Part shown: in pieces, positions 3,431 through 42,000 of the stretch | Layout: each line of letters starts with the position of its first letter | How positions within the stretch are numbered: position 1 is the stretch's first letter | Origin: a virus | Strand: one strand, 5' to 3' | Length of the DNA: 64,000 bases | Virus record (IMG/VR): IMGVR_UViG_3300022916_000008 | Coordinates: 26,857-90,856 of that record | Position numbers and translations under genes: made by a program | The notes under the pieces: model-generated | The model's input: the letters and a program-made list of their open reading frames with translations, nothing else | Databases searched by the model: none | What the model was told of the DNA's origin: nothing

Positions 3431-4090
3431 TTATATAGGTTCTTCTAAATCCTTCTGCTTGACTATTAATGAATCTTCTGCTCTCTCTCTTGGGCCTGCT
3501 GCGCCTCCCCCCCTGATCTTTGCTATCTGCTCCTCTCGCCTACGTGCTGATACTTGGTCTTGTAACTTCTTGACTGTATCAAGCTTGTCAGACAACTTAC
3601 CTGTCTTTGTCATCAACTCCTCTATGGAATCCGATACATTAGTTACATCTGGATAAGTATTCTTTGCTCTTTTGATTATCCCCTCCGCACCCTGACTAAT
3701 CCGTACAATCGATTTAGTAAGATTCTGAATAGACTTCTCTACAGCAAACAACATCTGCATCTCTGTGCATACATATCCCTGTAAGTCTTTATAACGGTCT
3801 CTGGCCTTGCGTATGCTGTTGTGAGGAACCCAATCCTTCTTAAGCCTATCTATCCCACAATGCCTTCTAGCATATTCAAGCTGTTTGTTCTCTGGTAGTT
3901 TTAATCCCCACATTGAGTAGTCTTCTAATAGGGCTATATACATCATTATAGCAACAGCTACCTTTTTATCCTTTCTAGTATCAGCATTGTATATACCCCT
4001 AAATTCTGTTACAGTAAGCGCCCAAATAGTGAAAATAAGCTCTCCGTCTTCATTCAATTCAAGTACTGGTAATGTGAAATCATACTTCAT
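3431..4090 (-). CDS. Conserved crAss-like pre-terminase protein (possible terminase small subunit)
   Basis: Pattern 'EFR.IY..D.RKDK..A...M.YI....DY' plus C-terminal coiled coil resembles the conserved gene upstream of terL in crAss-like phages. The TerS role is inference from position. Confidence 0.55.
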   Translation of the reverse strand: MKYDFTLPVLELNEDGELIFTIWALTVTEFRGIYNADTRKDKKVAVAIMMYIALLEDYSMWGLKLPENKQLEYARRHCGIDRLKKDWVPHNSIRKARDRYKDLQGYVCTEMQMLFAVEKSIQNLTKSIVRISQGAEGIIKRAKNTYPDVTNVSDSIEELMTKTGKLSDKLDTVKKLQDQVSARRREEQIAKIRGGGAAGPRERAEDSLIVKQKDLEEPI

Positions 4091-11629: not shown

Positions 11630-12268
11630 ATGAATAAAGTAAAAACGTATCTACAAGGAGTAAATCAAAAGACCCTTGTAAAAGTAGACCTACATCCTGG
11701 GTATCTTCCGATATACTCACCAGATCGTAGAGTAGAGCTTCCAGAAGGAGCATTTGTTGAAATGATTAGGCTATACAAGCGTGGCGCAAATGATGATAAG
11801 TTTCATATTGTCATTAGCTTTCCTTGGGACACTAAACTCCAAAGGACTTGTCAATACATCATAAGACCTACTAAGTACAAGCCAGTAACAATACCATTGG
11901 TTGTAAAAGAATTGGAAGCTGTATTTAATTTCGAACACAAAACTGTTACAGGAGACAGGGTAGAAGTATATCCTGAGTTCATTAAAAAGGTATTGACACA
12001 AGAAGAATTAAAGTATGCCTTCAAGAAGCGTGTACATGATGATGTCAATCCCAAGTTAATCAAATGGTGGACTATGTGGAAAGCATTATTTACATCCTAT
12101 GAAGTACATCAGGTATATCAAAGAACTACTTATTACATTCAGGCTTATGGAACCAATCCTGTAGCTGCTGTACCGGAGTATCCTGTATATGTCAATACAG
12201 ATGTGTCAGAACCCAAAGAGGTTACTAAAATAGAAATTAGAAAGAGAGTACGAGTATTTGGAATATAA
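11630..12268 (+). CDS. Hypothetical protein
   Basis: 212-aa ORF in operon. Confidence 0.75.
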   Translation: MNKVKTYLQGVNQKTLVKVDLHPGYLPIYSPDRRVELPEGAFVEMIRLYKRGANDDKFHIVISFPWDTKLQRTCQYIIRPTKYKPVTIPLVVKELEAVFNFEHKTVTGDRVEVYPEFIKKVLTQEELKYAFKKRVHDDVNPKLIKWWTMWKALFTSYEVHQVYQRTTYYIQAYGTNPVAAVPEYPVYVNTDVSEPKEVTKIEIRKRVRVFGI

Positions 12269-12654: not shown

Positions 12655-13480
12655 GCTAGAAAGAAGTCCTGCCCATAAGGGCAACTGTCCTCACTGTAGT
12701 AGAAATAAAGTATGGAGATACTTTGAAGGCTTCCATGGAGATGAGAGATTTGGAAGGTGTGAGAGGATCAATAGTTGTCCTTCTGGTGGGAATGTATACT
12801 ATCCCGATAGAACGTCCAAGAGAACCTACTTAAAAGAGGTTATAGAGGTAAGGAATAAACAGGCATTCATCCCACAAATGTATTATAGGAATATTATGCT
12901 TGACATGAGTTCTAACTTTCATGTGTTTTGTCGTAAGCTAGGTATACCCAATGAACATTTAATCAAATGGGGAGTAGGTACTGACAAAGAAAGGACTGTA
13001 TTCTTTTTTATCAATCACAAGAAAGAGATTGTGAATAAGAAGGTGGGTAAGTATCATAAAGATGGGAAGAGAGATAAGGAGTTTGGGTTTTACAGCATGA
13101 AGCAACCAGCTAAAGAGTACAAGTATCAATTATGCTTGTTTGGAGAGCATTTAATCAATGGATTGGATATAGCTATAGTTGAATCAGAGAAGACGGCTGT
13201 ACTTGCCTCTTGGGTGTACCCTAACTACTCTTGGGTAGCATGTTCAAGTGCTAATGGATTAAGTGATGGAAGTAATGGTTCTGCTGATAGGATAAGCATA
13301 CTTAAAGACCGAAAGGTTATATGGGTGTGTGATGCCGATAAAGCAGGAAGAAGTAATAGTAGTATTAACAACCTTGTCAGATACAACATCAATCATGTTA
13401 TTATGGACTTCTTTATTATGCGTACAGATGGCTATGATATAGGCGATAGTATTGTTGATGGCATAAAAGATTTATTATGA
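12641..13480 (+). CDS. Zn-ribbon + TOPRIM primase-like protein (DUF6371-like)
   Basis: CPHC...CERINSC zinc ribbon; 'LCLFGEHL', 'IAIVESEKTA', DAD motif, 'GYDIGD'. Confidence 0.8.
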   Translation: MVAHRLERSPAHKGNCPHCSRNKVWRYFEGFHGDERFGRCERINSCPSGGNVYYPDRTSKRTYLKEVIEVRNKQAFIPQMYYRNIMLDMSSNFHVFCRKLGIPNEHLIKWGVGTDKERTVFFFINHKKEIVNKKVGKYHKDGKRDKEFGFYSMKQPAKEYKYQLCLFGEHLINGLDIAIVESEKTAVLASWVYPNYSWVACSSANGLSDGSNGSADRISILKDRKVIWVCDADKAGRSNSSINNLVRYNINHVIMDFFIMRTDGYDIGDSIVDGIKDLL

Positions 13481-13767
13481 CCAAAGAAGAAAATCAATTG
13501 ATAAAGAAAGCAGAAGCTATTAAGTCTGTTGAATGTATAGACTGTGAATGCTTAGACCAAGACAAGGATGGATTAAAGTGCTGGAACTTTAACAATGGCA
13601 GAGAAGGGAAATTGTTTAGGATAAGATACATGAGTTATTCTTGTATAAAAAAGATGCAAGTTGATATGATTAAGACAGTTAATACCCAAGATAAGCTTAA
13701 CTTAGCCCATAAGATAATTCGCTTTGGCAATTCAATAAAAGGACGTGAACTAATAAACAAAGACTAA
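13477..13767 (+). CDS. Hypothetical protein (Cys motifs)
   Basis: Coupled ORF; CxxC. Confidence 0.65.
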   Translation: MTKEENQLIKKAEAIKSVECIDCECLDQDKDGLKCWNFNNGREGKLFRIRYMSYSCIKKMQVDMIKTVNTQDKLNLAHKIIRFGNSIKGRELINKD

Positions 13768-14084
13768 TGAGTGGAGTAAAAAGTAATGAACAGATAATCC
13801 ATATCAATGACAATTATGTTATTGGTATGTTTGATGAATACAACTTCGCATTAAAGAAGAAGCGTGTTGTACAAAGTGGAAATAATACTGGAGACATTAA
13901 GTGGGATGTCAAAGCATGGTGTGGTTCCTTCAAGCAAGTAATGGATCATGCGGAAAGAAACAATATCATTGACACTGTTGGGGATGCTACGGAAATAATG
14001 AAAACAGTAACAGATCTACACAAAGAAGTGGAAAGAATTGGGGAAGAAATTAAACAACTAATAAAAGACAAAAATGAAAGGTAA
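13767..14084 (+). CDS. Hypothetical protein
   Basis: TAATG-coupled ORF. Confidence 0.7.
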   Translation: MSGVKSNEQIIHINDNYVIGMFDEYNFALKKKRVVQSGNNTGDIKWDVKAWCGSFKQVMDHAERNNIIDTVGDATEIMKTVTDLHKEVERIGEEIKQLIKDKNER

Positions 14085-14664
14085 ACTAAGATCAGTTGTG
14101 CCACTGATGAGAAATGACGCACACAACACATGGACATCAAGCCGTGGAGATTTAATGTATGATTTCAGCCTAGAAGTTGAAGTAGACGACAAGGTGCTTA
14201 CAGGATCGGCAAGTGCAAAAAGAGATGTGTTTAGATTCAAAGCTGGTGATCAAATAGTATTTGAATACAAAGAGAATGATAATCCCGCATATCCTGCTAA
14301 GTTCAGTAAGGTGGCTGACCCTAACTATCAAGCAAGTGGTGGAGGTACTGGTGGTGCTCGTAAGGGAGAAGACTTTTATGTTAAGATGAAGGTTGGTATG
14401 TGTAAGAGTACAGGCAGTAAGCTTGCAGTTAATGCAGCTATTAATCTTAAGAAAGAAGTGTCATTGGATAACCTCTATGCTCTTACTAAGTTATTTCAAG
14501 GCTGGTTGCTTACTAATCCTACTAATCAAGAGGATATGTCCAAGCGTATGAGTGCTTTGTCAAGAGCAGTAGAATGTATTGTATTTGATAACCTCAACAT
14601 TGCAGACAGTAAGGCAATCTTAACTTGTGCTGATTTGTGGTTGGCTAATGTAAGCTTTGAATAA
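14074..14664 (+). CDS. Putative ssDNA-binding / annealing protein
   Basis: N-terminal OB-like beta domain, Gly-rich linker; adjacent to an exonuclease. Confidence 0.5.
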   Translation: MKGKLRSVVPLMRNDAHNTWTSSRGDLMYDFSLEVEVDDKVLTGSASAKRDVFRFKAGDQIVFEYKENDNPAYPAKFSKVADPNYQASGGGTGGARKGEDFYVKMKVGMCKSTGSKLAVNAAINLKKEVSLDNLYALTKLFQGWLLTNPTNQEDMSKRMSALSRAVECIVFDNLNIADSKAILTCADLWLANVSFE

Positions 14665-15494
14665 TGAAGAGCTTAGTCGACAAAGAAGGTAATGTCCATT
14701 TAGGATCAAGCCTTATTAAACAAATATATTACAAGGGAGAAGAAAGAATCCATTGTCCGAGAAAGATCTATATCAGCTATGTAGCCAAGTCTCATAAGTC
14801 ACCATCAAGTATATATATGCTTAGAGGGCTATACTTTGAATACAAGTGCTTAGGGGCTATGAGTTCTCATCAAGAAGATGTCCCTGATTGGTCATCATTG
14901 TTCTATGCAAGAGATCAGGAGAAGCCATTAGCAGAAACAGATCGTGTATTAAGGCAAGTCGATAATTTCAGAGAAAGAATCATTCCTCCTTATGGGTTAG
15001 AAGTTGATGAAGTAAGGGTTCAGGTAAAAGGAGAAAAGCTTTTAGAAGATCACAAGATAATATTAGAGGGAGAAGCTGATCTTATTAGTCCGGTATCTTT
15101 TACTGCACAGAACAAGGAGTATGTCTTTGATGATTGCATTATTGATCTTAAGCTTACCGGAGACCTTGGTAATGATTTTGGGGAATTCAGTTGGGCAAAG
15201 GCTCAGGATATGGATCACATACAAGCATATATCTATGGAGCTATATGGGAACTACCATTCATGTACTTTGTGTTTGACTATAAGAAGAACCCAGAGTTCC
15301 TTCCCATACTTAAGACCATGAAGGGTGTAGAGGCTATGGAGTACATGCAGACTGTTCTCAATGCAAAGGAAAAGATTCTTGAGTACGAAGAAAAGAAGTG
15401 GCCAGCAGTGTCTTCATACAAGCTATGTAAGAACTGTATGCTGCAAGATGTATGTGATAAGTTTATCAATAAGCCTGATGCTGTAATCATATGA
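14664..15494 (+). CDS. Cas4-like PD-(D/E)XK exonuclease
   Basis: HCPRK (N-terminal Cys), GEAD...IIDLK, QAYIY, and C-terminal CxxC-x5-C. Confidence 0.82.
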   Translation: MKSLVDKEGNVHLGSSLIKQIYYKGEERIHCPRKIYISYVAKSHKSPSSIYMLRGLYFEYKCLGAMSSHQEDVPDWSSLFYARDQEKPLAETDRVLRQVDNFRERIIPPYGLEVDEVRVQVKGEKLLEDHKIILEGEADLISPVSFTAQNKEYVFDDCIIDLKLTGDLGNDFGEFSWAKAQDMDHIQAYIYGAIWELPFMYFVFDYKKNPEFLPILKTMKGVEAMEYMQTVLNAKEKILEYEEKKWPAVSSYKLCKNCMLQDVCDKFINKPDAVII

Positions 15495-15932
15495 AACACA
15501 AAGTAATTGACTAGCGATACTTTGAGCAAACTTCGGATAACATATAACGGTGACTACACTCCAATTAATGAAATTTTAGTTGGAGAGGTAGTTACTGCTA
15601 TGTCCCGGAGATTCTTTAAGGTGTTAAAAATACATAAGAAGGAAAGATATCACACGCTTGAGAATTTAATTACAAAGCGAATTGTGAAAGTGGGTTGGGG
15701 CACATCAGAGTTCATTGTCCTATCAAAGTTATCCGAAGAAAAAAGGGATAAGTATCGACAGATATATAAGCAAGAACTAAAACTAAAGTAATGGAAAACT
15801 TATGGAAGATCCTTATGATCTCCATTGTTGTAGGAGTAATACTCTATCAGCTATGGAAGCGTATGTGTAAAGAAAAGCAATACACAAGAGATTTTGATAA
15901 CAATCTTAAAAAACAAATCAAAGACAGACAGA

Positions 15933-16379
15933 ATGAAAGAATACAAAAGTAATATCACTACATACAGACTTGTTAAAGAGCCTTGTGAGATTAAAAAGGT
16001 TAAGATAACTAAGTCCGCAGAAATTGCTGAATACTGCCGAGCTTTTTGGCATGACGACATAGGTATATACGAGAGTTTCTTTCTATTGCTAATGAACCGG
16101 GCAAACAATACCACTGGTTATGTTAAGATAAGCCAAGGTGGTGTCTCTGGAACAGTTGCAGACCTAAAGATAATCATGAAGTATGCAATTGAAGGACTAG
16201 CAGCAGCAGTAGCAGTCGTTCATAATCACCCATCTGGAAACATGAAGCCAAGTCAAGCAGATATTGAGTTGACAAAAAAGATCAATGATTCATGTAAACT
16301 AATGGATATAGCATTGCTAGATCATTTGGTTATTACCGAAGAAAGTTATTTCAGTTTCGCTGATGAAGGTCTTTTATAA
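15933..16379 (+). CDS. radC: RadC / JAB-domain protein
   Basis: E..F..L.NRAN, HNHPSG..PS.AD, LLDH. Confidence 0.92.
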   Translation: MKEYKSNITTYRLVKEPCEIKKVKITKSAEIAEYCRAFWHDDIGIYESFFLLLMNRANNTTGYVKISQGGVSGTVADLKIIMKYAIEGLAAAVAVVHNHPSGNMKPSQADIELTKKINDSCKLMDIALLDHLVITEESYFSFADEGLL

Positions 16380-16394
16380 GGTTTTCTTTAATTG

Positions 16395-16450
16395 GCTATA
16401 ACGGTTTGTGTATGGCATCGTTTTAATGTGCTATACACGTTGTTAGGTGC
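16395..16450 (+). repeat. attC-like site 1
   Basis: GCTATAAC ... GTGTATGGCA/TGCTATACAC ... GTTAGGTGC. Confidence 0.65.
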
Positions 16451-16480
16451 TTTTTAAAATAAATATTTAAAGATAAAACT

Positions 16481-16618
16481 ATGTTAAAAAACGAATGGTG
16501 GACAAAGCCAAACCCAGAAGGAATAAGCAATAAAGATGTACTACAAGTGTTTTGTGCTTGGTTAATGATACAAAGCGTGTGTATAGGTAGTTACCTATTT
16601 ATTTTATATTGCACCTAA
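16481..16618 (+). CDS. 45-aa cassette ORF with C-terminal hydrophobic helix
   Basis: MLKNEWW...LFILYCT; its stop codon lies inside the inverse core of site 2. Confidence 0.55.
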   Translation: MLKNEWWTKPNPEGISNKDVLQVFCAWLMIQSVCIGSYLFILYCT

Positions 16619-16703
16619 TGTGATCTTGTATAAATTGAGTGTGGCATTTTCGCCACACGGTAGATTTTGGATGCCACATTCAGTTTATACATTGTTAAGA
16701 TTA
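16611..16703 (+). repeat. attC-like site 2
   Basis: GCACCTAAT ... 21-bp inverted repeat (16627-47 / 16671-91) ... GTTAAGATTA. Confidence 0.65.
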
Positions 16704-16815
16704 GTTACACAAGGGAATGATAAATATTTTAATAAATAGCGAGACTGATCGATGTGGTATTCATACAAGATCACATTAAGGTTAATTAAGTTTAAAAGGA
16801 ATTAAAAAAGAAAAC

Positions 16816-17022
16816 ATGAAGATAATAAACGGAGTAATATTAGTGCAACTTGATGATCGTGATGGAGTTTTTCAAATAGATATGAAAGAAGAAAGGTTTA
16901 AATTAGCATTAAGGTTAATTCAAGAAAAAATATATAAGTTTGAACCTATGCCAATATTTGATAAACCCATTGAAGAAGTACAGTTTGTTTTTAATGATTT
17001 AAACGACCCGAAGGGTAATTAA
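16816..17022 (+). CDS. 68-aa cassette ORF
   Basis: Stop codon overlaps the start of site 3. Confidence 0.6.
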   Translation: MKIINGVILVQLDDRDGVFQIDMKEERFKLALRLIQEKIYKFEPMPIFDKPIEEVQFVFNDLNDPKGN

Positions 17023-17076
17023 CCTTAACTCTAAGCTATGATTCGTTTTTAATGAATTATAGCGACAGTTATGGGC
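17020..17076 (+). repeat. attC-like site 3
   Basis: TAACCTTAAC ... GCTATGATTC/GAATTATAGC ... GTTATGGGC; loop TCGTTTT(T)AATG is shared with site 1. Confidence 0.65.
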
Positions 17077-17410
17077 AGTTTTAATTATCAAACTAATGAA
17101 AAAGAAACAAGAATTAATAAAGAAGACACGTCCTTGGCATAAAGAAAGGTGTGTATGTGGACATATGATTTATTGGAGTAGAACAAAAGGTGAGTATAGA
17201 TGCCATTGTTCTAATCCTAAACCCTTTAATAAACAACATGATGGAAGGACAATATACAAATGAGGAAATGTTGGCTATGTCTAATATTATTACTTCCGTT
17301 GCTATGATGAACAGAGGACTTATAATTCGTAAAGTTGGAAGAACTGTAAACTATTACAGCAAATGTTCTGATGACAGTTGGTTGAACTATGATTGTAAAA
17401 CAACAAGCTA

Positions 17411-26722: not shown

Positions 26723-27039
26723 AAAAACTAGAACAGACAAGATTACAAAGACTATGGATGCAATTTAAGTCATGGATAAAACCTACAAAGCTTGACCTTG
26801 TAAACGAATTACGAGGTATTGATATGTTCGAACTACCAGAGTGCGATTACAAAGAACTTCCCGGTAAAAAGTTTGAACCATTTAAAATGACGATGAATCG
26901 TAATGAGTTTGATAAAGATATCATTTACCAAGACTCTTCTTTTACAAGAATTAAGATTATTGAACCACCCAAATATAAGCGTTTCTTGTTTTTTTGGAAG
27001 AGACGTTGGGAATATACAGTAGAACCTTATAAAGAATAA
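26719..27039 (+). CDS. Hypothetical protein
   Basis: Coupled ORF. Confidence 0.65.
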   Translation: MKKLEQTRLQRLWMQFKSWIKPTKLDLVNELRGIDMFELPECDYKELPGKKFEPFKMTMNRNEFDKDIIYQDSSFTRIKIIEPPKYKRFLFFWKRRWEYTVEPYKE

Positions 27040-28702: not shown

Positions 28703-29266
28703 ATGAAAGCAAAAACAGCAGAAATATTAAAGAAATTAGATAGCCTTAAATTTAGTAGTGATTTGGGCAAAGGATATACAGATGTAGTTTTATTACATGA
28801 TGTTGAAAAGGTTTTAAGAGAATACGCTAACCAAAGCAAGTCACTACCAACGGATGTAGAAATTGAGAATATTGCATCCAGACAGTATAATTCATCTATA
28901 TTATTAGAACATTTTCCAGAAGGGAATAATATGAGGCGTATTATAGTTTCGGTTATTACAAAAGCACTGAAGCATATGCGAGACACATACAAGCCTACAG
29001 AGTGGGTAAGTGTTGAGGATATGCTGCCAGAAGAAAATCAAGATGTGATTGTATACGAACCATCTACAGGTACTTCTTGTGCTGAATTAGATCAAGGTAT
29101 GTGGTATGATATATCAGCAGCATGTTACTTCCCTCCACATCAAAAGGTTACTCATTGGATGTATTTACCTGAGTTTAAAGAAGATGATTTTCAAGAAAAG
29201 CTTAAAAAGTATTTACCAGAAATAAATTCAAATGAGTTTCCTGACGATTCAGATGTAGCTCTTTAA
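28703..29266 (+). CDS. DUF551-domain protein
   Basis: 'WVSVED.LPE...VTHWM.LPE'. Confidence 0.8.
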   Translation: MKAKTAEILKKLDSLKFSSDLGKGYTDVVLLHDVEKVLREYANQSKSLPTDVEIENIASRQYNSSILLEHFPEGNNMRRIIVSVITKALKHMRDTYKPTEWVSVEDMLPEENQDVIVYEPSTGTSCAELDQGMWYDISAACYFPPHQKVTHWMYLPEFKEDDFQEKLKKYLPEINSNEFPDDSDVAL

Positions 29267-29441
29267 ACAAAAGATATGACACGAATAATATTTACTGATA
29301 GGATAACTCCAAAAGAATTAGGATTTAAAACTCCCAGGCTTCCCAGAAAAAGGAAGAAAAGATTGAAAAAAATATATGCCCGAAGTGGAATGGATTGGAG
29401 AGAATGGGTTAGACTAAAAAGAGTTAAAAGAACTAAAAGAA

Positions 29442-29687
29442 ATGACTGATAAATTATACTTAGGTTCTCTGCTTTTAGAGATTGAGAAATGGTCTGAAAA
29501 ATACGATATGAATTTCCAATTTTGGAATGATGATAACAGTGTGTTTCTATACGCAAAAGGAACAAGTACTGAATTATTTAGTAATGGGGGACTATCATCT
29601 CCACAAGAAGTTATTAAAGAAGTACTTAAATTTATTTATAGAGTAAACAGAACCCCTAAAGATAAAAGGGTAAAAAGTCATGACTAA
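29442..29687 (+). CDS. Hypothetical protein
   Basis: Coupled ORF. Confidence 0.6.
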   Translation: MTDKLYLGSLLLEIEKWSEKYDMNFQFWNDDNSVFLYAKGTSTELFSNGGLSSPQEVIKEVLKFIYRVNRTPKDKRVKSHD

Positions 29688-30183
29688 GATAACTACATTA
29701 GAGATAGAGGTTAGGATGATGCAACACCTAGACTTTCGCACAAACCTTATTGTACCCAATGTTAGTTGGGGAATACCTATTGACTGGAATGCGTCTGGTA
29801 ACAGAAAGTATGGAAACTTACATGAATGTGACTTACTATCATTAAGTGTGGCAGGATATGCAACAGAGGTTGAGATAAAAGTATCTAAAGCAGACTTGAT
29901 AAAAGATGATGCTAAGAAGCACAGCCATGATCACAACTTGATTAAGTACTTATACTTTGCCGTTCCTAAGAAATTAGAAGCAATAGCCTTGGAAGTTATA
30001 CCAGAACGTGCCGGACTATTTGTAATTGAAAGAATGACCCACAACTCCTATCTGAAAGTAAAATGTGTTAAACGTGCCAAGCAAAGAAAGGATGTGTTGA
30101 AGTGGAGTGATCATCAAAGATATGTCCTTGCCAGACTAGGTGCAATGAGAATAGTTGGGTTAAAACAAAAGTTAATTAAATGA
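29680..30183 (+). CDS. PD-(D/E)XK (MmcB-like) nuclease
   Basis: 'ECDLL...EVEIKVSKADL..D'. Confidence 0.75.
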   Translation: MTKITTLEIEVRMMQHLDFRTNLIVPNVSWGIPIDWNASGNRKYGNLHECDLLSLSVAGYATEVEIKVSKADLIKDDAKKHSHDHNLIKYLYFAVPKKLEAIALEVIPERAGLFVIERMTHNSYLKVKCVKRAKQRKDVLKWSDHQRYVLARLGAMRIVGLKQKLIK

Positions 30184-30785
30184 CAATGGGATTTAGTGAA
30201 GAAGAATTTAAACAGTTACAGAACAATGTAAACAAGGGAAAGGGTATGATAGATGAAAAGAAAAAGATTGTTGCTAAAAGAAAGAAGCGTAATCCAAAGC
30301 AGGAGCAAACAGCCTTATTCACAGAAGATGTTTATGATGTTCGTAAAGGACAAACCGTTGAGTCAGAAACTTATTATAAGCTGATTTCTCCAACAAAGGT
30401 TGTATTGCCTAGAAAGACAAAAAAGGACAATACTGTATACCTTAACCTTAATATCTACAGGAACCTTCATTATATAATTAACAACAATGCTAAGAAGGAG
30501 TACAAGCGATTAATGTTTGATCAGGTAGTCCAACTACCTAAAATGAAAAAGATCGCCTTGGTGTTCGTATTAAACAAGTCTACGATGGGTGTTAAGGACA
30601 GACATAATGTGTGCTGTATAGTCCAGAAGTTCTTTTGTGATGTACTCACAGATAATGAGCTTAAAATTATCCCTGATGATGATGACAAGTATATCGAATA
30701 CGAGAGGTATGTGTCAGCAGATCAGCTATCAAAAAGTGACTTCATTGAAATCTATGTAATAGATAAATCATATACAGTTGAATAA
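30180..30785 (+). CDS. RusA-like Holliday junction resolvase
   Basis: 'D..N.....K...D.L.....I.DDD' acidic pattern. Confidence 0.7.
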   Translation: MTMGFSEEEFKQLQNNVNKGKGMIDEKKKIVAKRKKRNPKQEQTALFTEDVYDVRKGQTVESETYYKLISPTKVVLPRKTKKDNTVYLNLNIYRNLHYIINNNAKKEYKRLMFDQVVQLPKMKKIALVFVLNKSTMGVKDRHNVCCIVQKFFCDVLTDNELKIIPDDDDKYIEYERYVSADQLSKSDFIEIYVIDKSYTVE

Positions 30786-30797
30786 TCAATATAGCCT

Positions 30798-32327
30798 ATG
30801 GAAAATAAACATACATTTGAATGTACTGTATTAAATAAAATCCGTCATATTAACGATTGGAGGATTTATACATTTGTTACAGATGAAAGCGTACCTCATA
30901 CAATACCTTTGAAAATAAAAGGGACTCATCATGGAAAAAACTTTGGCAGGCTCACATGCTTTAATGATATGACCAGAAACACTAAGTATGTTATTTCTAT
31001 AAGCATACGTAATAGCAAGAATAAAGATCAGAATGGCATATGCTATAAAAACTTATATCTTGAAACATATTATCCTATACTTGGTGAAGAAGCAGATCAG
31101 GATTTTTTAAAAGCCATTGTATCAGAAGCAAGATATGATTTGATTATGTCTGTTTACCCAGACTTCATTGACTTGGTTCGTAATGGAAAAGAAATAGATC
31201 TAAACTTATTACCCGGTATTAAAGAAAAGACTTTTGCTATTATCAGAGACAAGGTTACAATCAATTACTGGAAGGCTGAGCTTATGTCATGGCTATTACC
31301 ACTTGGTATTACCGAGAAGATGATCCAGAAGCTTATAGGTAGGTATAAGACACCTGATGCACTCAAGGTAGCATTAAAAGGTAATCCATACATACTTACT
31401 GAGATTCATGGATTAGGTTTCTTTAGAGTAGATGATATGGTCATGAAAATGTTTCCTGAAAAAAGAGTTAGTAGGGAGCGCATGATGGCATTTGTTACTT
31501 ATCAGCTACAACATGTAGGGAATACGTCTGGACATACTGTAATCAGTAAAGCAGATATACTTGTATACATAAAGAAAAGTATACCGGAATGTGAGGCATT
31601 GTATAAGATAATGGCAAGTAGTCCAACGCAAGAATTATTGATAATGTATAATGAGTTCGTAGGGCTTAAGCGTTACTATGATGCTGAGAAGTATATCTAT
31701 GAAAAGCTCAAGAAGATAGCAGATGCGCCTATAGAGGTTATGCATAATGAGAATGACTATATCTTTATGACAGAGGAGAAGATAGGCTTTAAGTTATCAG
31801 AAGAACAGAAGGAAGCTATAGAGTCATTACAAACCAATAACCTTGTGATAATCGTAGGAAGTGCTGGTGTTGGTAAAACAAGTTCTATTCAGGGAATTAT
31901 ACATGAATATGATGAGTGGGATATACTCTTGTGTTCATTAAGCGCTAAGGCTGCTGATAGGATGAGAGAGATAACAGGTAAGGAAGCATTTACTATTCAT
32001 AGAGCATTAGGATATGACGGAAAAGGTTTTGCTTACAATGAAAGAAGTCCATTACACAACAAGGTTATTATTATTGATGAAGCCAGTATGGCTAATCTAT
32101 ACATCTTTAAATCATTGATAGAGGCTATAAGTATAGGGTCTAAATTAGTAATAGTTGGAGATGATGGACAGTTACCGCCAATAGGGGCAGGTAATGTCTT
32201 TCAGGATTTATTGCAGAGTGAATTTAAGATATGTAGGCTTACAAAGATATACAGGCAGGCACAGAGGAGTGGTATCATAGTAGATGCTAATTATATTAGA
32301 AAAGGAATTAACCCATTTAAACAATAG
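30798..32327 (+). CDS. recD2: RecD2-like helicase, N-terminal part
   Basis: HhH motifs (LPGIKEKT; NPY.L..I.GLGF..VD), Walker A GSAGVGKT, DEASM, GD..QLPPIG, RQA..SGI; ends prematurely at TAG. Confidence 0.9.
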   Translation: MENKHTFECTVLNKIRHINDWRIYTFVTDESVPHTIPLKIKGTHHGKNFGRLTCFNDMTRNTKYVISISIRNSKNKDQNGICYKNLYLETYYPILGEEADQDFLKAIVSEARYDLIMSVYPDFIDLVRNGKEIDLNLLPGIKEKTFAIIRDKVTINYWKAELMSWLLPLGITEKMIQKLIGRYKTPDALKVALKGNPYILTEIHGLGFFRVDDMVMKMFPEKRVSRERMMAFVTYQLQHVGNTSGHTVISKADILVYIKKSIPECEALYKIMASSPTQELLIMYNEFVGLKRYYDAEKYIYEKLKKIADAPIEVMHNENDYIFMTEEKIGFKLSEEQKEAIESLQTNNLVIIVGSAGVGKTSSIQGIIHEYDEWDILLCSLSAKAADRMREITGKEAFTIHRALGYDGKGFAYNERSPLHNKVIIIDEASMANLYIFKSLIEAISIGSKLVIVGDDGQLPPIGAGNVFQDLLQSEFKICRLTKIYRQAQRSGIIVDANYIRKGINPFKQ

Positions 32328-32331
32328 TATT

Positions 32332-32592
32332 ATGGATTGGGAGAAAGAGTATAAAAAGTGTATAGGGAATCCTTATTATTTCTATACAACATATGTCCTT
32401 GTTAATGGAAAGCAAGCAACAACAATGTTGTCAAAAGAAGAGTTTAATAAATATTTTGAAGCAAAGAGATATTCTGAATGGTGGAGAAAGACAACTCCTA
32501 AACACATACAGGAAAAGATGCAAAAAGAATTTGACAAGATAGAGGAGGAACTTTGGACTAAAGAGTATAAGAAAGATGGCAATAATAACTAG
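32332..32592 (+). CDS. 86-aa gene inserted in recD2
   Basis: ATG 4 nt after the N-half stop; overlaps the C-half start by 17 nt. Confidence 0.65.
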   Translation: MDWEKEYKKCIGNPYYFYTTYVLVNGKQATTMLSKEEFNKYFEAKRYSEWWRKTTPKHIQEKMQKEFDKIEEELWTKEYKKDGNNN

Positions 32593-36018: not shown

Positions 36019-39000
36019 CTATCTACGTGTAGTCCCTATCTCTTTATATCCTAAGAACCTACCTAGTTCTGAATTTTTTATGTCATCCTTGAAGTATCTT
36101 TCAAACTCAGCAAATGTAGATAATACAGGAACAGACTTTCTTATTTGGTATGCACCAGGCATTCTTCCGTCCTTAAGACGTTCTCCTTTAATTACTCCAT
36201 TAAACATGTATTGGAACAATGCTGTATTAACATCATAAAGTCTCCCTATTACTACTACTGGTTGATTAACGTTCCTTAGTATATCTGCAGGCCTTAGTCC
36301 TTGAGTAATGTCTTCCATCATAAGTCTACGCAACCTTACTTCTAATGCTGATTCAGCTTCATCGTCATCTGCTGCTCCTCCTGCAAGTAACCAACTAGCC
36401 ATAACTGCACCCGTCAATAAAACTTCAACTACATGCTGTTTTTGCCTTGATGACAATTGTTCCCAAGTATATGCTTCATTATATCTTATATCAAGTGGGC
36501 TAATTTTATTAATGGCTACCATTGAGTATGTTTTAAGTACATTCCACATAACCCAAACCCTACCTTGATTAAGTACGTCTAAGAATTCATATACTGTTGC
36601 TCCTTCATGCATAATGATGTTACCAAACTCATCTTGTCTTGGCTTCCAAGCTCCTAATGACTTATCTTTAAATTTACCAGCGTAAGCATTATTAAGTTGT
36701 GCCTTCATATACCTTTTGAATTGCTGTAACCATTCACCGTATACAGTAACGTCCATAGCAGTCTTTTCTTCATCTCTGTAGCCACCATGAATAAGTTGTG
36801 ATACCCTCTTTAGTCTTATCTTTTCTTCAGTAGTTAATTCATTTAACTCCTCAAAACTACCATCGCCTTTCTGTGTCCAACCTCTTTGACCACCCTTATA
36901 TATAGCCCTGCCATCTTCAATTTCATAAGCATCCCACATACTCATACTCTTTGGATCATTCATGTCCACTTTCATATGACGTAGCTGTGCTGCAAGAAGT
37001 GTGTACAACGCAAAGTCTTCACCTATCCTATAAGTAAGGAAGATGTTTGATCTATCAAGAAGCTTAGCCTTACTCGCTATCTTTTCTTTACTCCTGATCT
37101 TAAAGTCATAGTTGTCATTCATATACTCTAACTCTTTAGCTAGTATACGTAGCTTGTTGTTACGCTGGTCATTAGTTGCATAGCTACCTGACATCTTCAA
37201 CCATTCCTTTGCACCAAATGCTAGATCACTTAACGTAAAGTCTATATCTTCTCTTGGGACTCCTAGTCTTTTGGCAATAGAACCTATACTTGCTTTCATG
37301 CTATTAAGCATGACTATTAACATTGTATTGAATGTAGGAGCCACTACTTTGAAACCGATTGTAGCAAATGACACCCAATGTCTGATACGTCCTGCAACCT
37401 TATCTGTATTAAGATTAATATATACATTCTCTCCCTTACTATTTACTCTTGTTCCTATTTTGATTGGCCTTTTGGTCAATTTAACAGCCTTTTTCTGATT
37501 GAATACATTCACTACTAGCATGTCATCTACCAATGCCATAGAATTCTTCATAATAGGAATACCATTCTGATCTTTCTCTGCTGCTAACTGCATCTTAGTA
37601 GCTTGTGCAAATGCAAGTGCAGGGTCTAAGTATCTTTTCTCTACAATATCACCTACAAAACTCAAGAAGGCTTTCTCTACATCAAATGAATAGTCGTTAC
37701 TTGCTATAAGTTCTGGATCGCCAAAGTAACGTACAGGAAGTTGTGAATTGGTTTGATTGTTATAGTAAGCAAAGCTATCAAAGAATGTAGTAGCCATTCC
37801 TTTTTTCTGATACTCTAGCGTTTCCTTGCTAAACAAACCATGTCTTTCACTTACCTCTCCTGCTGAAAGCTGTATGCGTGGCATAAAGTCAGTAGCTAGT
37901 TCTTCAGATACAGAAGATTTCATTGTCTTGGCTTTGCTATGTGGATTACCATTCTTATCATAGTAGGCTGGTTCACTCATAGTTTTATTCCATTCTTCTG
38001 CCATTACCTTCCTGACGTATTGATTAAACTCCCATTGAGTATCTGTCATCTGGTGTGTTGTTCCGTCCATCTTAGTGTATGTACGTGATGTGGAAGCGTA
38101 GTACCCTTGTTTATCTATGTCGTTCTTATAAGTCCACATAAACCCAAACAGGTCTTTATACTTAACTCCTTTGACCATCTCACCCATTCTTGTATTGCCT
38201 ATTCCATTATCATACTCTGACTTTAATTTCTTAAGATGCTTAGTGAATACTTGCTCTATTCCCATCTTATACCTCCTTGACTCATCCTTTCTGTTAAGTA
38301 TATACTTTGATAAGATGTTTATAAGAGGATTGGCAATCTCATATTGTGGTACAGCCAACCATTTCTTTAATTTGCTAATGTCATGTAGTTCATAAGTAAT
38401 GTCTTCTCCAAAGTTTGTATAGACTGACCGTAATGCCTCATATACTTTCCTTTTCTCATGTACTAATCTAACCTTTTCATCAGAGGATAGAAGACTATCT
38501 AGTTTTTTTAGCTTATAGTCTAATTGGAACAGTCTATTACCAAGATACTCTACTTTTTCCTCATAAGTCTTATCATCAAGTTCTTGTTTCATCTCAAGTA
38601 CGGACTCGCTTTGAGAACCATAATTGTTTGGATTAAACATACCTTGTTTCTTGAACTTCTCGTATACATCTGTCTTGCTGTTACTGGAGTCTGCTAAGAA
38701 GGACTCTATCATTCCAAGATATATAGTTAATGATGCATGATCCATATTAACCAATTCGTCCTTACTAAGATGTGCTATAGAGATATTCCTAAACCTTACA
38801 TTAGGATTCTTTGACTTTATAATCATAGCTCTTAAAACAAGCTCTAACTTAGCCCTATTAACTTTAGTATCGTATACATCAGAAGTTTGAGTGTTTCCAT
38901 ACTTCATTAGGATTAATCTTGATATATTTCCATAGAACTTAGAGCCAGCTTTCCAGTCTACCAGTGATAGGTCATTATTATCATGCTGTATCACTAAGTC

Positions 39001-42000
39001 TGCTGTTGTTGCTATGCCTAGGTCTTCACTGTATAATACTATTTCAGATACTATTTTGTCAAGCACATCAATATTTATATCTCCTGCTTCAAAACCGTCA
39101 GCTACTCTTACCCCTGCTACACTTAATATTTCATCAAGATTGTCAGTAATAAATTTTAGTTTGGATACTGGTATCTCAGACTGAACTCCCGGCTTCTCTT
39201 CTGCATATCTTTCTATCCTCCGTTGCAATTCTGCTTTTTTGATTGGGTCTTTACTCAATAGCTGTTCAATCATTGCATGTGCTATTTTCCCTTCTATTCT
39301 AGCTGTTTCTGCATTGATCATATAATAACTGACTAAATCATCATAAGTAAATTCAGACTCTATTCCATCATAAGTGAGAAGAATTTTATCATTCAGTGAT
39401 GTACTCTTACTAGCAAAGATCATTTTGGCCTTCTTCTCTATTCTTGACTTGTTGTCAAAACCATAACTAAAATTACCACCAGTCCATTCAGTAAGTCTAT
39501 TATATATCTTACCAAGCTTATCCTTGTAATAGTTGTTTTCCTCGTCCTCAAACAGTTCAAACCCCATAGAATCTGAATCCTTTGCTATATCATCAAGAAT
39601 GTTTTCATTGCCACGATAACCTGGGGAGACACGTTGTTCTTTAGTTTCTTGTTGCATACGCATCATTTCACTAAGCTGTTCATCTTTGCTTAAGTTATTC
39701 CACCACAGTTCCCATTCAGTAGGCTTAGGCTCTGGCATGGTATACAAGGTTGGTTTTACCACTTTGATTGTGTAAAAGTTATGAGACATTCTCTTGGGTG
39801 CATAAACCATATGTGCTCCAAATGAATTTACAAGATTATCAAAGATGTTCTTTACTGATCTTTCATTAGCTTGCCATATACCATTGTTTTGATTCCATAA
39901 ATGTTTCTGGTATTCAAGGTTAAGCAATTGCTTATACTTTGACTTAGAAAAATCAATACCATAAAACTTCATACCTATACGTTGATCTGTTGCTAGCATA
40001 TCAGCAAACTCACCCATTGTAGAGAAAGAAGTCATTGAGGATAAATCAGACTTTGAGAACAACTTCTGTATCCATGACTTAATGATATTCCATATACTCT
40101 GTACAGCATTGTTCCCTGTCTTAAATTTGATTGACAATTCTGTGCCAAGGAATTCAACAATAGCTTCCTCGATAATTTGATCTTCATTTAGTTCTGGCGA
40201 TCTCTTACGAACATCCTCTATTACGTCTTGATGCTTATTTATTTCAGCAACCAATCTATTGTATGTAGCCTTGTCTGTTGCACGAATAGCTTCTATAACA
40301 GGGTGTAAGTATTCATGGAATGGAGTGTCTCTTTTTACATGAGCTGTATTGATCCATATAGTTCCATTTCTCCACTCTCCACGTATAGGATTATTGACAT
40401 CATTAAACCTTCTGAACTTGATACCAAACTTATTCCTAAGCCTTATCAGTACTTCTATCAGGGCCATTGCTGGTATGTCACTTTTATTGTCTTTTGATAC
40501 AGATTGCTTCTTTGAAATACTATCTGGAGATTGTACTGTAACCCTACGTGTCTTGATGAAACTTTCCGGATTATATATCTTTTCACGTAATGCTTCAAAC
40601 TCTGTACTGCTTAATGGATCTTTATCTGCATATTCTATTGGACCAATCTTTCTTATGTCATAGCTAATACCAGTATACTTGTAACCAGTAGCACTTGTTA
40701 TTGGAACTGCTTTATTTACATTAGTGACTTTGTATACATAACCAGTAACGCCAGTAGCATCATCTGTATTCTTTATTAGCATTGTATCTCCTACCTCTAA
40801 CTCATAACTTGCCTTATCAGGTCTATCGTATTTGGTTAGGTTTGACAAATCTCCTGACCTATTTACAGTCTTGACATATGGACTATATACCATATTCGGA
40901 TTATAACCATTAGCGGCTATGGTAAGGTCAAACTTGTAATTCTTATGCTCTAGCTTCTGTCCTATGTTTACATAATAGACATGCTCTGAACCAGGCACTT
41001 CTGCCATCTTATAAAGTATGTTCTCAAACTCTCTTGCAATCAGTGGGAATGAATTATAGTCATTTTTCACCTCTCCTGTCTTATCATTCTTTGTAATCTT
41101 AAGTGAGTACCTACGATTAAAGAATACCCTTTTCTCATTTACTACTTCATGGCCAGTGATCTGACGATCTTTAGTATCCTTTGAATCTCTAAACGGAACG
41201 AGTCTATCTGTAAAGTCAATAAGTGTTCCCATGTACTCCATATTGTTTGCAGAGTATTGCATAGCGAAGAAGCTTTTAAGATTGTCTAGCAACCCTTTTG
41301 ATTCTTCAATATTCTTTCTAGCAAATAGTCCATAGATGTTATTATCAATATAACTGGTAACTTCTCCAAATAGTTTAGGATCTATTACGTATGTATAACT
41401 ATTGATACCAAATTCAAGGCCATCATGTATGATAGAATACTTTAAGAAGTCTTTCTGTACATCATCTTCTAAAGACATGAAGCCATCCTCATAGTCATGG
41501 ATATCTTCAATCTTTGATTGGAAGCCTGCACCAAATCTAATATACTTAATACCTTTCCATCCGGGTACTATTTCTATACCTGAAAGGAATAGGTTCTCAA
41601 GATTATCACTTTTAAGATCACTAACTCTGTCAATGAATCTTTGTGACCAAGCTTCTGCACCTGCTATATCATATCTTATATTTCCCTTCTTAACCTCATA
41701 AGGTTCTTCATTGGAAGTATCCATACTAGGTCCTCCTTCAAAACTAAATGATGAAAGCATAAACCTTATGAATCCTCTACGTATATCTTCATGTGCCTCG
41801 GAAGCAGAGCCTTCCCCTACTTTAATATTATTTTTTGTCCACTTATATACTCCTTCTGAGAACTTAACAAGATTCTTATGATGTAGGAACCAAATGTTAC
41901 CAATCTTAGTCTTTAAGAACTTGATAGCATTAAAAGCAGAATTGATATGAGGGAGGTTGAGTATATCTGTATTGGTAAATGAAAAGCTATCTTTTAACTC

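Follow-up and report, generated by a model that had tools for sequence, protein, structure and literature searches.

A probable two-cassette array of integron-like hairpin sites in a phage genome and its site family in Flavobacteriaceae and their phages

Genes that lie between short recombination sites with no linked integrase are known from the pdif (Xer) modules of Acinetobacter plasmids, where they are presumably moved by the host Xer proteins, and the pdif sites themselves are 28-bp double-stranded XerC/XerD sites that alternate in orientation. In virulent phages, including the Polaribacter phage P12002L, Qi et al. (2023; PMC9892861) described clusters of attC sites lacking an integrase (CALINs), and the P12002L site P12002L_attC1 was predicted by HattCI alone (PMC9892861). 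The PeSLs of T4-type phages are described in two reports (PMC2839356, PMC4122927) as composite promoter-terminator motifs that recombine by homology. Here we analyze a locus in a window of 64,000 nt (positions 26,857 to 90,856 of the IMG/VR virus record IMGVR_UViG_3300022916_000008, the last 64 kb of a 90,856-base record with an estimated completeness of 93% and a genome G+C of 36.7%), in which three imperfect palindromes (P1, P2, and P3) and two small open reading frames (ORFs), all on the + strand, lie downstream of a RadC/JAB gene. We propose that this locus is probably a two-cassette array of a conserved, integron-like site family shared by Flavobacteriaceae and their phages. Both the structure of the sites and comparative evidence support this reading, and the mechanism that goes with it is one that we infer.

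Each site is described here by its hairpin and two flanks, U, the 14 nt ending at AAC ahead of the site, and D, the 14 nt beginning at GTT behind it. P1 (16394..16449) has the canonical short hairpin, AAC followed by 5 nt, a 13-bp stem-loop (TCGTTTTAATG), 3 nt, and GTT, with TAAC at 16399-16402, the stem at 16408-16438, and GTTA at 16442-16445; its flank U1 (16389..16402, TAATTGGCTATAAC) finds its best partner in D3. Cassette A (16442..16619) extends from D1 (16442-16455) through ORF A (16481-16618), which encodes 45 amino acids with a hydrophobic C-terminus and for which no PHROG match was found, to U2 (16606-16619), and the ORF A stop codon (16616-16618) is the TAA of TAAT within U2. An inverted repeat of 28 nt (82%, 16443-16470 with 16591-16618) encloses ORF A. 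P2 (16617..16696) is a long divergent variant made of AAT, 7 nt, a 21-bp imperfect stem with an inner 7-bp hairpin, TT, and GTT (TAAT 16616-16619; arms 16627-16647 and 16671-16691, 21 nt, 90%; GTTA 16694-16697), a layout that matches family variants of ~81 nt. Cassette C (16694..17029) comprises D2 (16694-16707), a long leader, ORF C (16816-17022, 68 amino acids), and U3 (17016-17029), with the stop codon (17020-17022) sitting 7 nt ahead of the end of AAC and a perfect 13-nt inverted repeat enclosing the ORF. P3 (17021..17075) is a short hairpin homologous to P1, with compensatory stem changes and an extra T in the loop; the AAC used by the model lies at 17027-17029, the stem at 17037-17065, and GTTA at 17068-17071, and the flank D3 behind it (17068..17081, GTTATGGGCAGTTT) has the family pattern GTT-R-N6-AGT. 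P1 and P3 share the core [G/C]TATG[GCA/AT]TCGTTTT(T)AATG[TGC/AAT]TATA[C/G], in which the stem positions in brackets differ by compensatory changes. The inverted repeats around the two ORFs are among the longest in the window, and the 711-nt stretch folds with z = -7.5 against shuffles, its minimum-energy fold closing the array by pairing 16390-16403 with 17066-17081. No T-run is seen behind the stems in the window.

These palindromes belong to a much wider set. A search pattern was derived from P1 and P3, and a covariance model, R1, was built. The strict pattern matches 95 viral contigs, with the free stem bases complementary in 81 of 96 copies, and more than 120 genome contigs, nearly all from Flavobacteriaceae (Algibacter, Polaribacter, Tenacibaculum, Olleya, Lacinutrix, and others). 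The proposed structure is paired in 96.8% of cells, with 153 changed on both sides, which none of 500 shuffles reached, and changes on both sides are seen in each of the six stem pairs not fixed by the pattern; the site family exists and its stems covary. The flanks are conserved as ..AATT-N6-YAAC-G.. ahead of the stem and ..GTT-GTT-R.. behind it, pairing holds in 94% of cells for AAC with GTT and in 97.5% for the inner stem, and the two spacers are asymmetric in length (5 and 3 nt). AAC and GTT are 32 to 120 nt apart, and the hairpin tip can extend to >100 nt. The sites therefore have the build of an attC-type site, namely a hairpin with paired AAC/GTT boxes, an unpaired spacer, and a variable tip. 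R1 scores P1, which is nearly identical to the family consensus, at 72.1 bits (E 8e-19) and P3 at 36.7 bits (E 7e-8), and these are its only matches in the 90.9-kb phage genome. It finds 167 sites in motif-bearing viral loci, often in one-strand arrays with a spacing of 160-1200 nt, and no match in 245 kb of unrelated phage loci; at least 6-14 sites were detected per host genome (lower bounds), and 12 of 150 other genomes sampled across the phylum carry R1 sites. The family is specific to Flavobacteriaceae and their phages. An earlier description of this DNA, made without database searches and referred to below as the preliminary description, had suggested that the sites may belong to a repeat class such as Flavo-1, which is not supported, as neither Flavo-1 nor any other Rfam family matches at its gathering score in the window or at E ≤ 10 in 16200-17300. 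An Rfam scan of 15 host loci likewise gave no relevant match.

The long-variant hairpins in four loci (L155, L198, L201, and L170) contain recurring inner sub-hairpins, for example AAAATCCGCGAGGATTTTC, between TCGTT and AATG, and these are conserved across genera, as though the tip itself had a role. In an Olleya genome with 14 sites (G001), those at 1.82-2.48 Mb are all on the + strand and those at 0.03-0.19 and 2.67-3.17 Mb all on the - strand, a bias that could not be related to the replichores, as dnaA is located at 2.27 Mb, within the + block. A literature match to the loop motif proved to be a primer inside cas2 and was discarded.

The signature of cassettes resides in the flanks, where complementarity was scored over the 11 variable positions of D against the reverse complement of U. 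In the window, the D flanks pair with the U flank of the next site (D1-U2, 8/11; D2-U3, 9/11) rather than with that of their own site (4, 4, and 6 of 11 for the three sites), with P values of ~0.019 and ~0.0045 against random family flank pairs, and D2-U3 shows the family asymmetry of G versus A at position 11. For D3, a better U-like partner was not found within 4 kb downstream, and its pairing with U1 scores 7/11 strictly and 9/11 with G:T counted (P ~0.057). Across the family, D(i) against U(i+1) averages 7.0/11 in 52 adjacent pairs, same-site and random pairs both average 3.9, and 27 of the 52 score at least 8. All 12 pairs with a score of 10 mismatch at position 11 only, with G in D and T in U, and this mismatch is a fixed G:T on one strand. 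The cassette ends, GTT-R-N6-AGT and AWT-N6-Y-AAC, are mutually complementary and variable between cassettes, and next-site end complementarity holds across the family. In the viral loci, 52 of 56 inter-site intervals have their longest ORF on the strand of the hairpin, with the ORF beginning 20-50 nt past GTT and stopping 1-18 nt ahead of AAC, and these ORFs include DNA methyltransferases, XRE-type regulators, and many orphans. The preliminary description had reported the three palindromes, the pairing of each core with the inverse core of the following site, and ORFs that stop in or at that inverse core, and had read these as the signature of cassettes. The coordinates, scores, and stop codons given above bear it out on every one of these points, and the signature generalizes from this array to a large site family.

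The copies in host chromosomes are mostly single. They are antisense to their neighboring genes and reach to within a few bases of a start codon, and the genes that adjoin them are unrelated to each other. At 5 of 20 testable host sites, a partner D that matches at 12-13 of 14 positions, again with the G/A asymmetry, lies 500-1300 nt upstream, and in all five a long-variant hairpin stands ahead of this partner. Moreover, U0, the flank ahead of the long hairpin, pairs with D0, the flank behind the short hairpin, in 5/5 over 8-10 contiguous bases, one of the five cases having a 1-nt indel. The occupied host layout is U0-long hairpin-D..gene..U-short hairpin-D0, and it shows an insertion footprint that looks like that of a circular cassette in a palindromic dock. 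A circle with a long hairpin that recombined between AA and C of the dock would give exactly this layout. Same-site palindromes with a short hairpin make up about 14% of the host sites and are consistent with empty docks. It should be noted that a blind 12-mer search for distant closure in hosts was not above its control, whereas the targeted test at the long-hairpin flank was. Along the direction of the host gene, the order is the dock, G|TT, the gene, and the gene's own hairpin, the arrangement of a classical integron; in the phage cassettes the orientation of the gene relative to the site is the opposite. Past D0, on the gene strand, the conserved host tail reads TTGAC..TAACTTCG and faces the hairpin and the gene. 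This tail (TTG..N20..TAACTTCG) resembles the Bacteroidota promoter consensus, and presumably points through the hairpin into the gene; no match to that consensus was seen in the ~25 nt ahead of the phage start codons. In loci L127-L206, where the tail is found 30-40 nt past GTT of the short host sites, it has the form GTTAAACGAAGTTAG-N5-TTTTTT-ACAAAGTCAAG and is promoter-like on the other strand.

Comparison of related sequences indicates where such units begin and end. Among non-duplicate viral loci, 14% of BLAST segment ends lie ≤30 nt from a hairpin, against 2% of random points. A 98%-identical block in one pair of loci (L038 and L117) starts at the AAC of one site, includes the gene, and stops at the next AAC, with divergence directly past the latter, and a 94.5%-identical block in another pair (L056 and L124) is exactly GTT..AAC; all three high-identity 3' ends lie 0-5 nt from the C of AAC and none at G|TT, and the hairpins downstream of the shared phage blocks differ. 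The 5' and 3' hairpin identities could be compared between homologous cassettes in two usable pairs only. As a population check, contigs of four seawater metagenomes were placed on the window; two RNA runs, which contained less than a tenth of the sampled words, were left out. Two runs (X7 and X11) have contigs that match 16304-17029 and 16671-17029 with no mismatch and then continue with 26 other letters (GGATGGCTGTATGTGGCGTGGCTTTT), which are the start of a different family hairpin and are present in two viral contigs unrelated to the phage, and an X7 contig over 17026-18500 opens with 3 foreign letters. Therefore, in a near-identical phage population the AAC at 17029 is directly followed by other DNA, and both mosaic and population breakpoints fall at the sites. 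The variation between relatives that the preliminary description anticipated at the cassette junctions is thus seen between phages and in populations, but just past AAC and not at G|TT. A crossover at G|TT with attC downstream of each ORF fits the host copies and is not what the phage copies show; with the phage breakpoints on the AAC side, the phage ORFs are mirrored relative to classical integron cassettes.

A 162-nt contig of another organism (run X3), placed at 16399-16449, matches both arms of P1 and the D flank and has 46 extra letters in the loop, which makes it a long-variant site, of the GTTAGGTG flank type, from the same sea water.

The phage would have to obtain its recombinase from elsewhere. 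As the preliminary description had stated for the window, a tyrosine recombinase is absent: PF00589 has no match in the whole record, and relatives of the host XerA/IntI-like recombinases were found neither in the phage nor in P12002L nor in 878 kb of array-bearing viral loci, leaving the phage without a recombinase of this kind. In five site-bearing host genomes nothing scores above the TIGR02249 cut-off of 265 bits; the recombinases near the sites reach 202-211 bits, skipping model positions 179-239, and involvement of a canonical IntI is not supported. The model that they do satisfy is NF040815 (XerA / 'integron integrase'), with 228 and 236 bits against a cut-off of 220, and recombinases of this type lie 0.4-5.5 kb from R1 sites in five cases in four genomes (G113, G069, G112 twice, and G096), where a rough chance expectation for such adjacency is ~0.2 (~75 site-recombinase pairs, 3-5 Mb genomes). 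In G113 (locus L253), sites at 3680, 7534, 9852, and 11806 are joined by a special site at 12838-12975, ending at the recombinase gene (13015-13902), and the cassette genes of this row are on the opposite strand. As XerA/IntI-like genes adjoin host sites, a trans-acting host enzyme is plausible, and to this extent the host integrase invoked in the preliminary description stands, although an IntI of TIGR02249 grade is absent from the five hosts.

Next to this gene, which encodes a XerA/IntI-like recombinase of 295 amino acids, a distinct site type is present in two copies (11806-11940 and 12838-12975 of L253). It consists of a long GC-rich hairpin, GTGCCGGGCTATGTTCAG...CTGAACTTAGCCCGGCAC, and then a 35-nt palindrome, GTTGAAGATGAA..TTCATCTTCAAC, which looks like a gene-less cassette with paired ends. 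This site type may be the attI-like end of the platform.

In the mechanism that we propose, a site would act as a hairpin folding on one DNA strand and each cassette would carry one gene; a circular one-site unit recombining into an existing site would give the paired yet variable ends. Exchange would involve single strands in their folded form and take place at AA|C, on the 5' side of the hairpin, and the mobile unit would consist of the hairpin, D, the gene, and U. The likely catalyst would be a XerA/IntI-like tyrosine recombinase that the host supplies in trans in the course of infection, and the docking site in the phage would be U1-P3-D3, downstream of the RadC/JAB gene. A segment inside cassette C (16759..16790, - strand) may be a fossil of such an exchange, in the form of an inverted U3-like flank joined to the left arm of P2. 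Its reverse complement reads TTAATTAACCTTAA-T-GTGATCTTGTATGAAT, and the segment accounts for repeats I4 (20 nt, 95%) and I8 (13 nt, 100%). This would be the junction expected of a circle or tandem copy of P2-D2-ORF C-U3, provided that exchange takes place between AA and the next base. The base past AA is T at the putative fossil and at U2|P2, and C ahead of P1 and P3, which suggests from sequence that this base travels with the hairpin.

Several findings weigh against these proposals. P2 is not scored by R1 even at E ≤ 10, so that its place in the family follows from its architecture only. D3-U2 also scores 7/11, which equals D3-U1, so that closure of the array in the window is only weakly supported. 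Strong end complementarity is found in only about half of the adjacent site pairs of the family, and of three adjacent site pairs compared in P12002L, one is complementary (8 contiguous bases) and two are not. P12002L_attC1 is, in addition, the sole one of six sites without verified IntI1 attC x attI1 junctions (PMC9892861). For the enzyme, a XerA-like recombinase of ~390 amino acids shows no clean co-occurrence with the sites in the phylum sample, 8 of the 12 R1-positive genomes of the 150-genome sample have no recombinase match at E ≤ 1e-60, and many sites have no XerA/IntI-like gene nearby. Hence, the enzyme assignment is a lead and not a result. The population evidence consists of short assembled contigs, not raw reads, in which the insert is seen only partly, and no recombination was directly observed, with no circles or empty sites in the phage.

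With integron attC sites and CALINs the present sites share an imperfect hairpin whose outer boxes are AAC and GTT, with an unpaired spacer and a tip that varies in length, as well as one promoterless gene per unit, a stop codon in the inverse core, and core pairing with the next site. As with CALINs, integrase-less arrays occur in lytic phages, and P12002L_attC1 is a member of the present family: its primer sequence (Table S3, PMC9892861) equals the R1 match at 30004-30061 of P12002L (L247), in which R1 finds five sites, at 29248-32455 and 37305-39099. Three DNA methyltransferase genes, a Mom-like gene, and small ORFs are set apart by the P12002L sites, and this content suggests that counter-defence genes are typical cargo. 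The differences from attC are that the present sites conserve sequence as well as shape, with an invariant loop and a paired flank of 13-14 nt rather than 7, and that the breakpoints are on the AAC side with mirrored phage ORFs. Unlike integrons, the family has no TIGR02249-grade IntI in the five hosts, and in hosts its copies form dispersed docks for a single cassette, every one with a tail that seems to resemble a promoter of its own. PeSLs (Arbiol et al. 2010; Comeau et al. 2014) are likewise intergenic stem-loops that bracket small accessory ORFs in plastic regions and mark the breakpoints of insertion, deletion, and replacement in phages without a dedicated recombinase. In contrast to PeSLs, no promoter or terminator consensus was seen in the phage copies analyzed here, the cassette ends are mutually complementary and variable, and the sites also occur in host chromosomes with an insertion footprint. 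The phage copies have no T-run past the stem and only ~25 nt from GTT to the start codon, and the promoter-like tail is found in hosts, on the other strand. From pdif sites the present ones differ in being hairpins of 56 to 140 nt with one orientation per array. REP/RAYT elements and IS200/IS605 ends (PMC2817692, PMC3733652, PMC6006769) are similarly strand-specific extragenic hairpins, dispersed and handled as single-stranded DNA. Compared with these elements, the present sites are without a GTAG/CGTC tag, are found in ~6-14 copies per genome (lower bounds) rather than hundreds, have no consistent Y1 transposase, and enclose genes as cassettes; the combination of a Y1 transposase gene with a tagged, high-copy palindrome does not describe them.

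The same sites could in principle act in RNA. The hairpins and the stems that enclose the ORFs would then be mRNA structures, either for RNase III-type processing or as stabilizers, and would also serve as portable homology for recombination between co-infecting phages in the manner of PeSLs, which provide a precedent (PMC2839356, PMC4122927). Indeed, the phage sites are sense to their ORFs in the 52 of 56 intervals already mentioned, G:U-compatible wobbles are kept on the sense strand, the fold of the 711-nt stretch is strong, and homologous recombination would likewise put breakpoints inside conserved repeats; that the conserved one-strand G:T pairs also fit an RNA fold in the phages must be counted against the cassette array. 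We nevertheless think an mRNA function unlikely to be the explanation, as the enclosed host gene is antisense to the G:T strand, yet asymmetry and end pairing persist there, where a sense RNA would carry A:C mismatches. The U0-D0 closure in 5/5 host cases is an insertion footprint and not a feature of a transcript, there is no T-run behind the hairpin, no match to the Bacteroidota promoter consensus was seen in the ~25 nt ahead of the start codons, and no Rfam family matches.

Single-strand transposition by an HUH (Y1) enzyme, as in IS200/IS605, PATE, or REP/RAYT-like elements, would instead make the hairpin a subterminal recognition structure, with a single-stranded circle that is excised and inserted after a short target (..AA). 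In favor of this, the hairpin is strand-specific, the unit seems to start with the hairpin and its ends base-pair, the copies are dispersed and intergenic with regional clustering of orientation in Olleya, and Y1 transposase genes occur in 4/5 host genomes. Against this, Y1_Tnp has no match in one of the hosts that carry sites (G005), and its copy numbers do not follow those of the sites, which associate instead with tyrosine recombinase genes; the phage itself has no tyrosine recombinase (PF00589), Y1 transposase genes not having been searched in the phage or the array loci. A second matching end hairpin is lacking, as is the GTAG or CGTC tag of REPs, and we regard this transposition as improbable. 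That the palindromes are accidents or ordinary terminators of AT-rich intergenic DNA, with no cassette biology, draws what force it has from the low G+C of the genome, the failure of R1 to score P2, and the weak closure in the window. For P1 and P3 this is refuted by the covariation, which exceeds all 500 shuffles, by the R1 scores, with P1 at 72 bits against the family consensus, and by the 0 model matches in the 245 kb of control phage DNA; the flank pairing (P ~0.02 and ~0.005) and the lack of a T-run behind the stems argue in the same direction, and for the locus as a whole we consider chance highly implausible.

The RadC/JAB gene upstream of the array (15894-16379; phrog_10276) gives the only match when the locus is compared by BLAST with cultured phages, the 63-nt site giving none, and relatives found through the RadC/JAB protein are ≤54% identical and carry no sites; none was close enough for an alignment over the locus. 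The ORF C protein has identical copies on 14 contigs on record and no homologues were found beyond these, and the neighboring small ORFs have no PHROG matches. A 14-mer, CATTAAGGTTAATT, occurs twice, at 16774-16787 in the leader of cassette C and at 16907-16920 inside ORF C, where it encodes ALRLI, and its complement forms U3 (17016-17028), so that a single core is present three times in 250 nt. Elsewhere in the genome, the 12-nt core is found at one site only, 48264, even allowing one mismatch. Upstream of the locus, an ORF at 14664-15494 with no PHROG match ends in a Cys-rich motif, CKNCMLQDVCDKF, which is reminiscent of PD-(D/E)XK / Cas4-type nucleases.

The broader hypothesis that we put forward on the basis of the cassette array, tentatively and with a little less than even confidence, is that Flavobacteriaceae and their lytic phages share a distinct, undescribed gene-capture system. 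It would combine hairpin sites of conserved sequence that recombine on one strand, a simpler XerA/IntI-like host enzyme without the extra domain of IntI, and scattered host docks that each seem to have a promoter with mirrored arrays in the phages, which would borrow the host enzyme during infection to swap anti-defence and orphan genes. A limited literature search found no description of the site family as such, of docks in host chromosomes, or of mirrored phage ORFs. The site is compact and defined in sequence and a candidate recombinase is at hand, which makes the system directly testable. If it is real, lytic marine phages, crAss-like phages included, trade single genes as cassettes by means of the recombination machinery of the host, and the many DNA methyltransferases among the exchanged genes fit a role in counter-defence. 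Such trade would explain the hyperplastic small-gene regions of these phages, and it would extend integron-type biology to Bacteroidota, in a form that standard searches requiring IntI would be unlikely to recognize.

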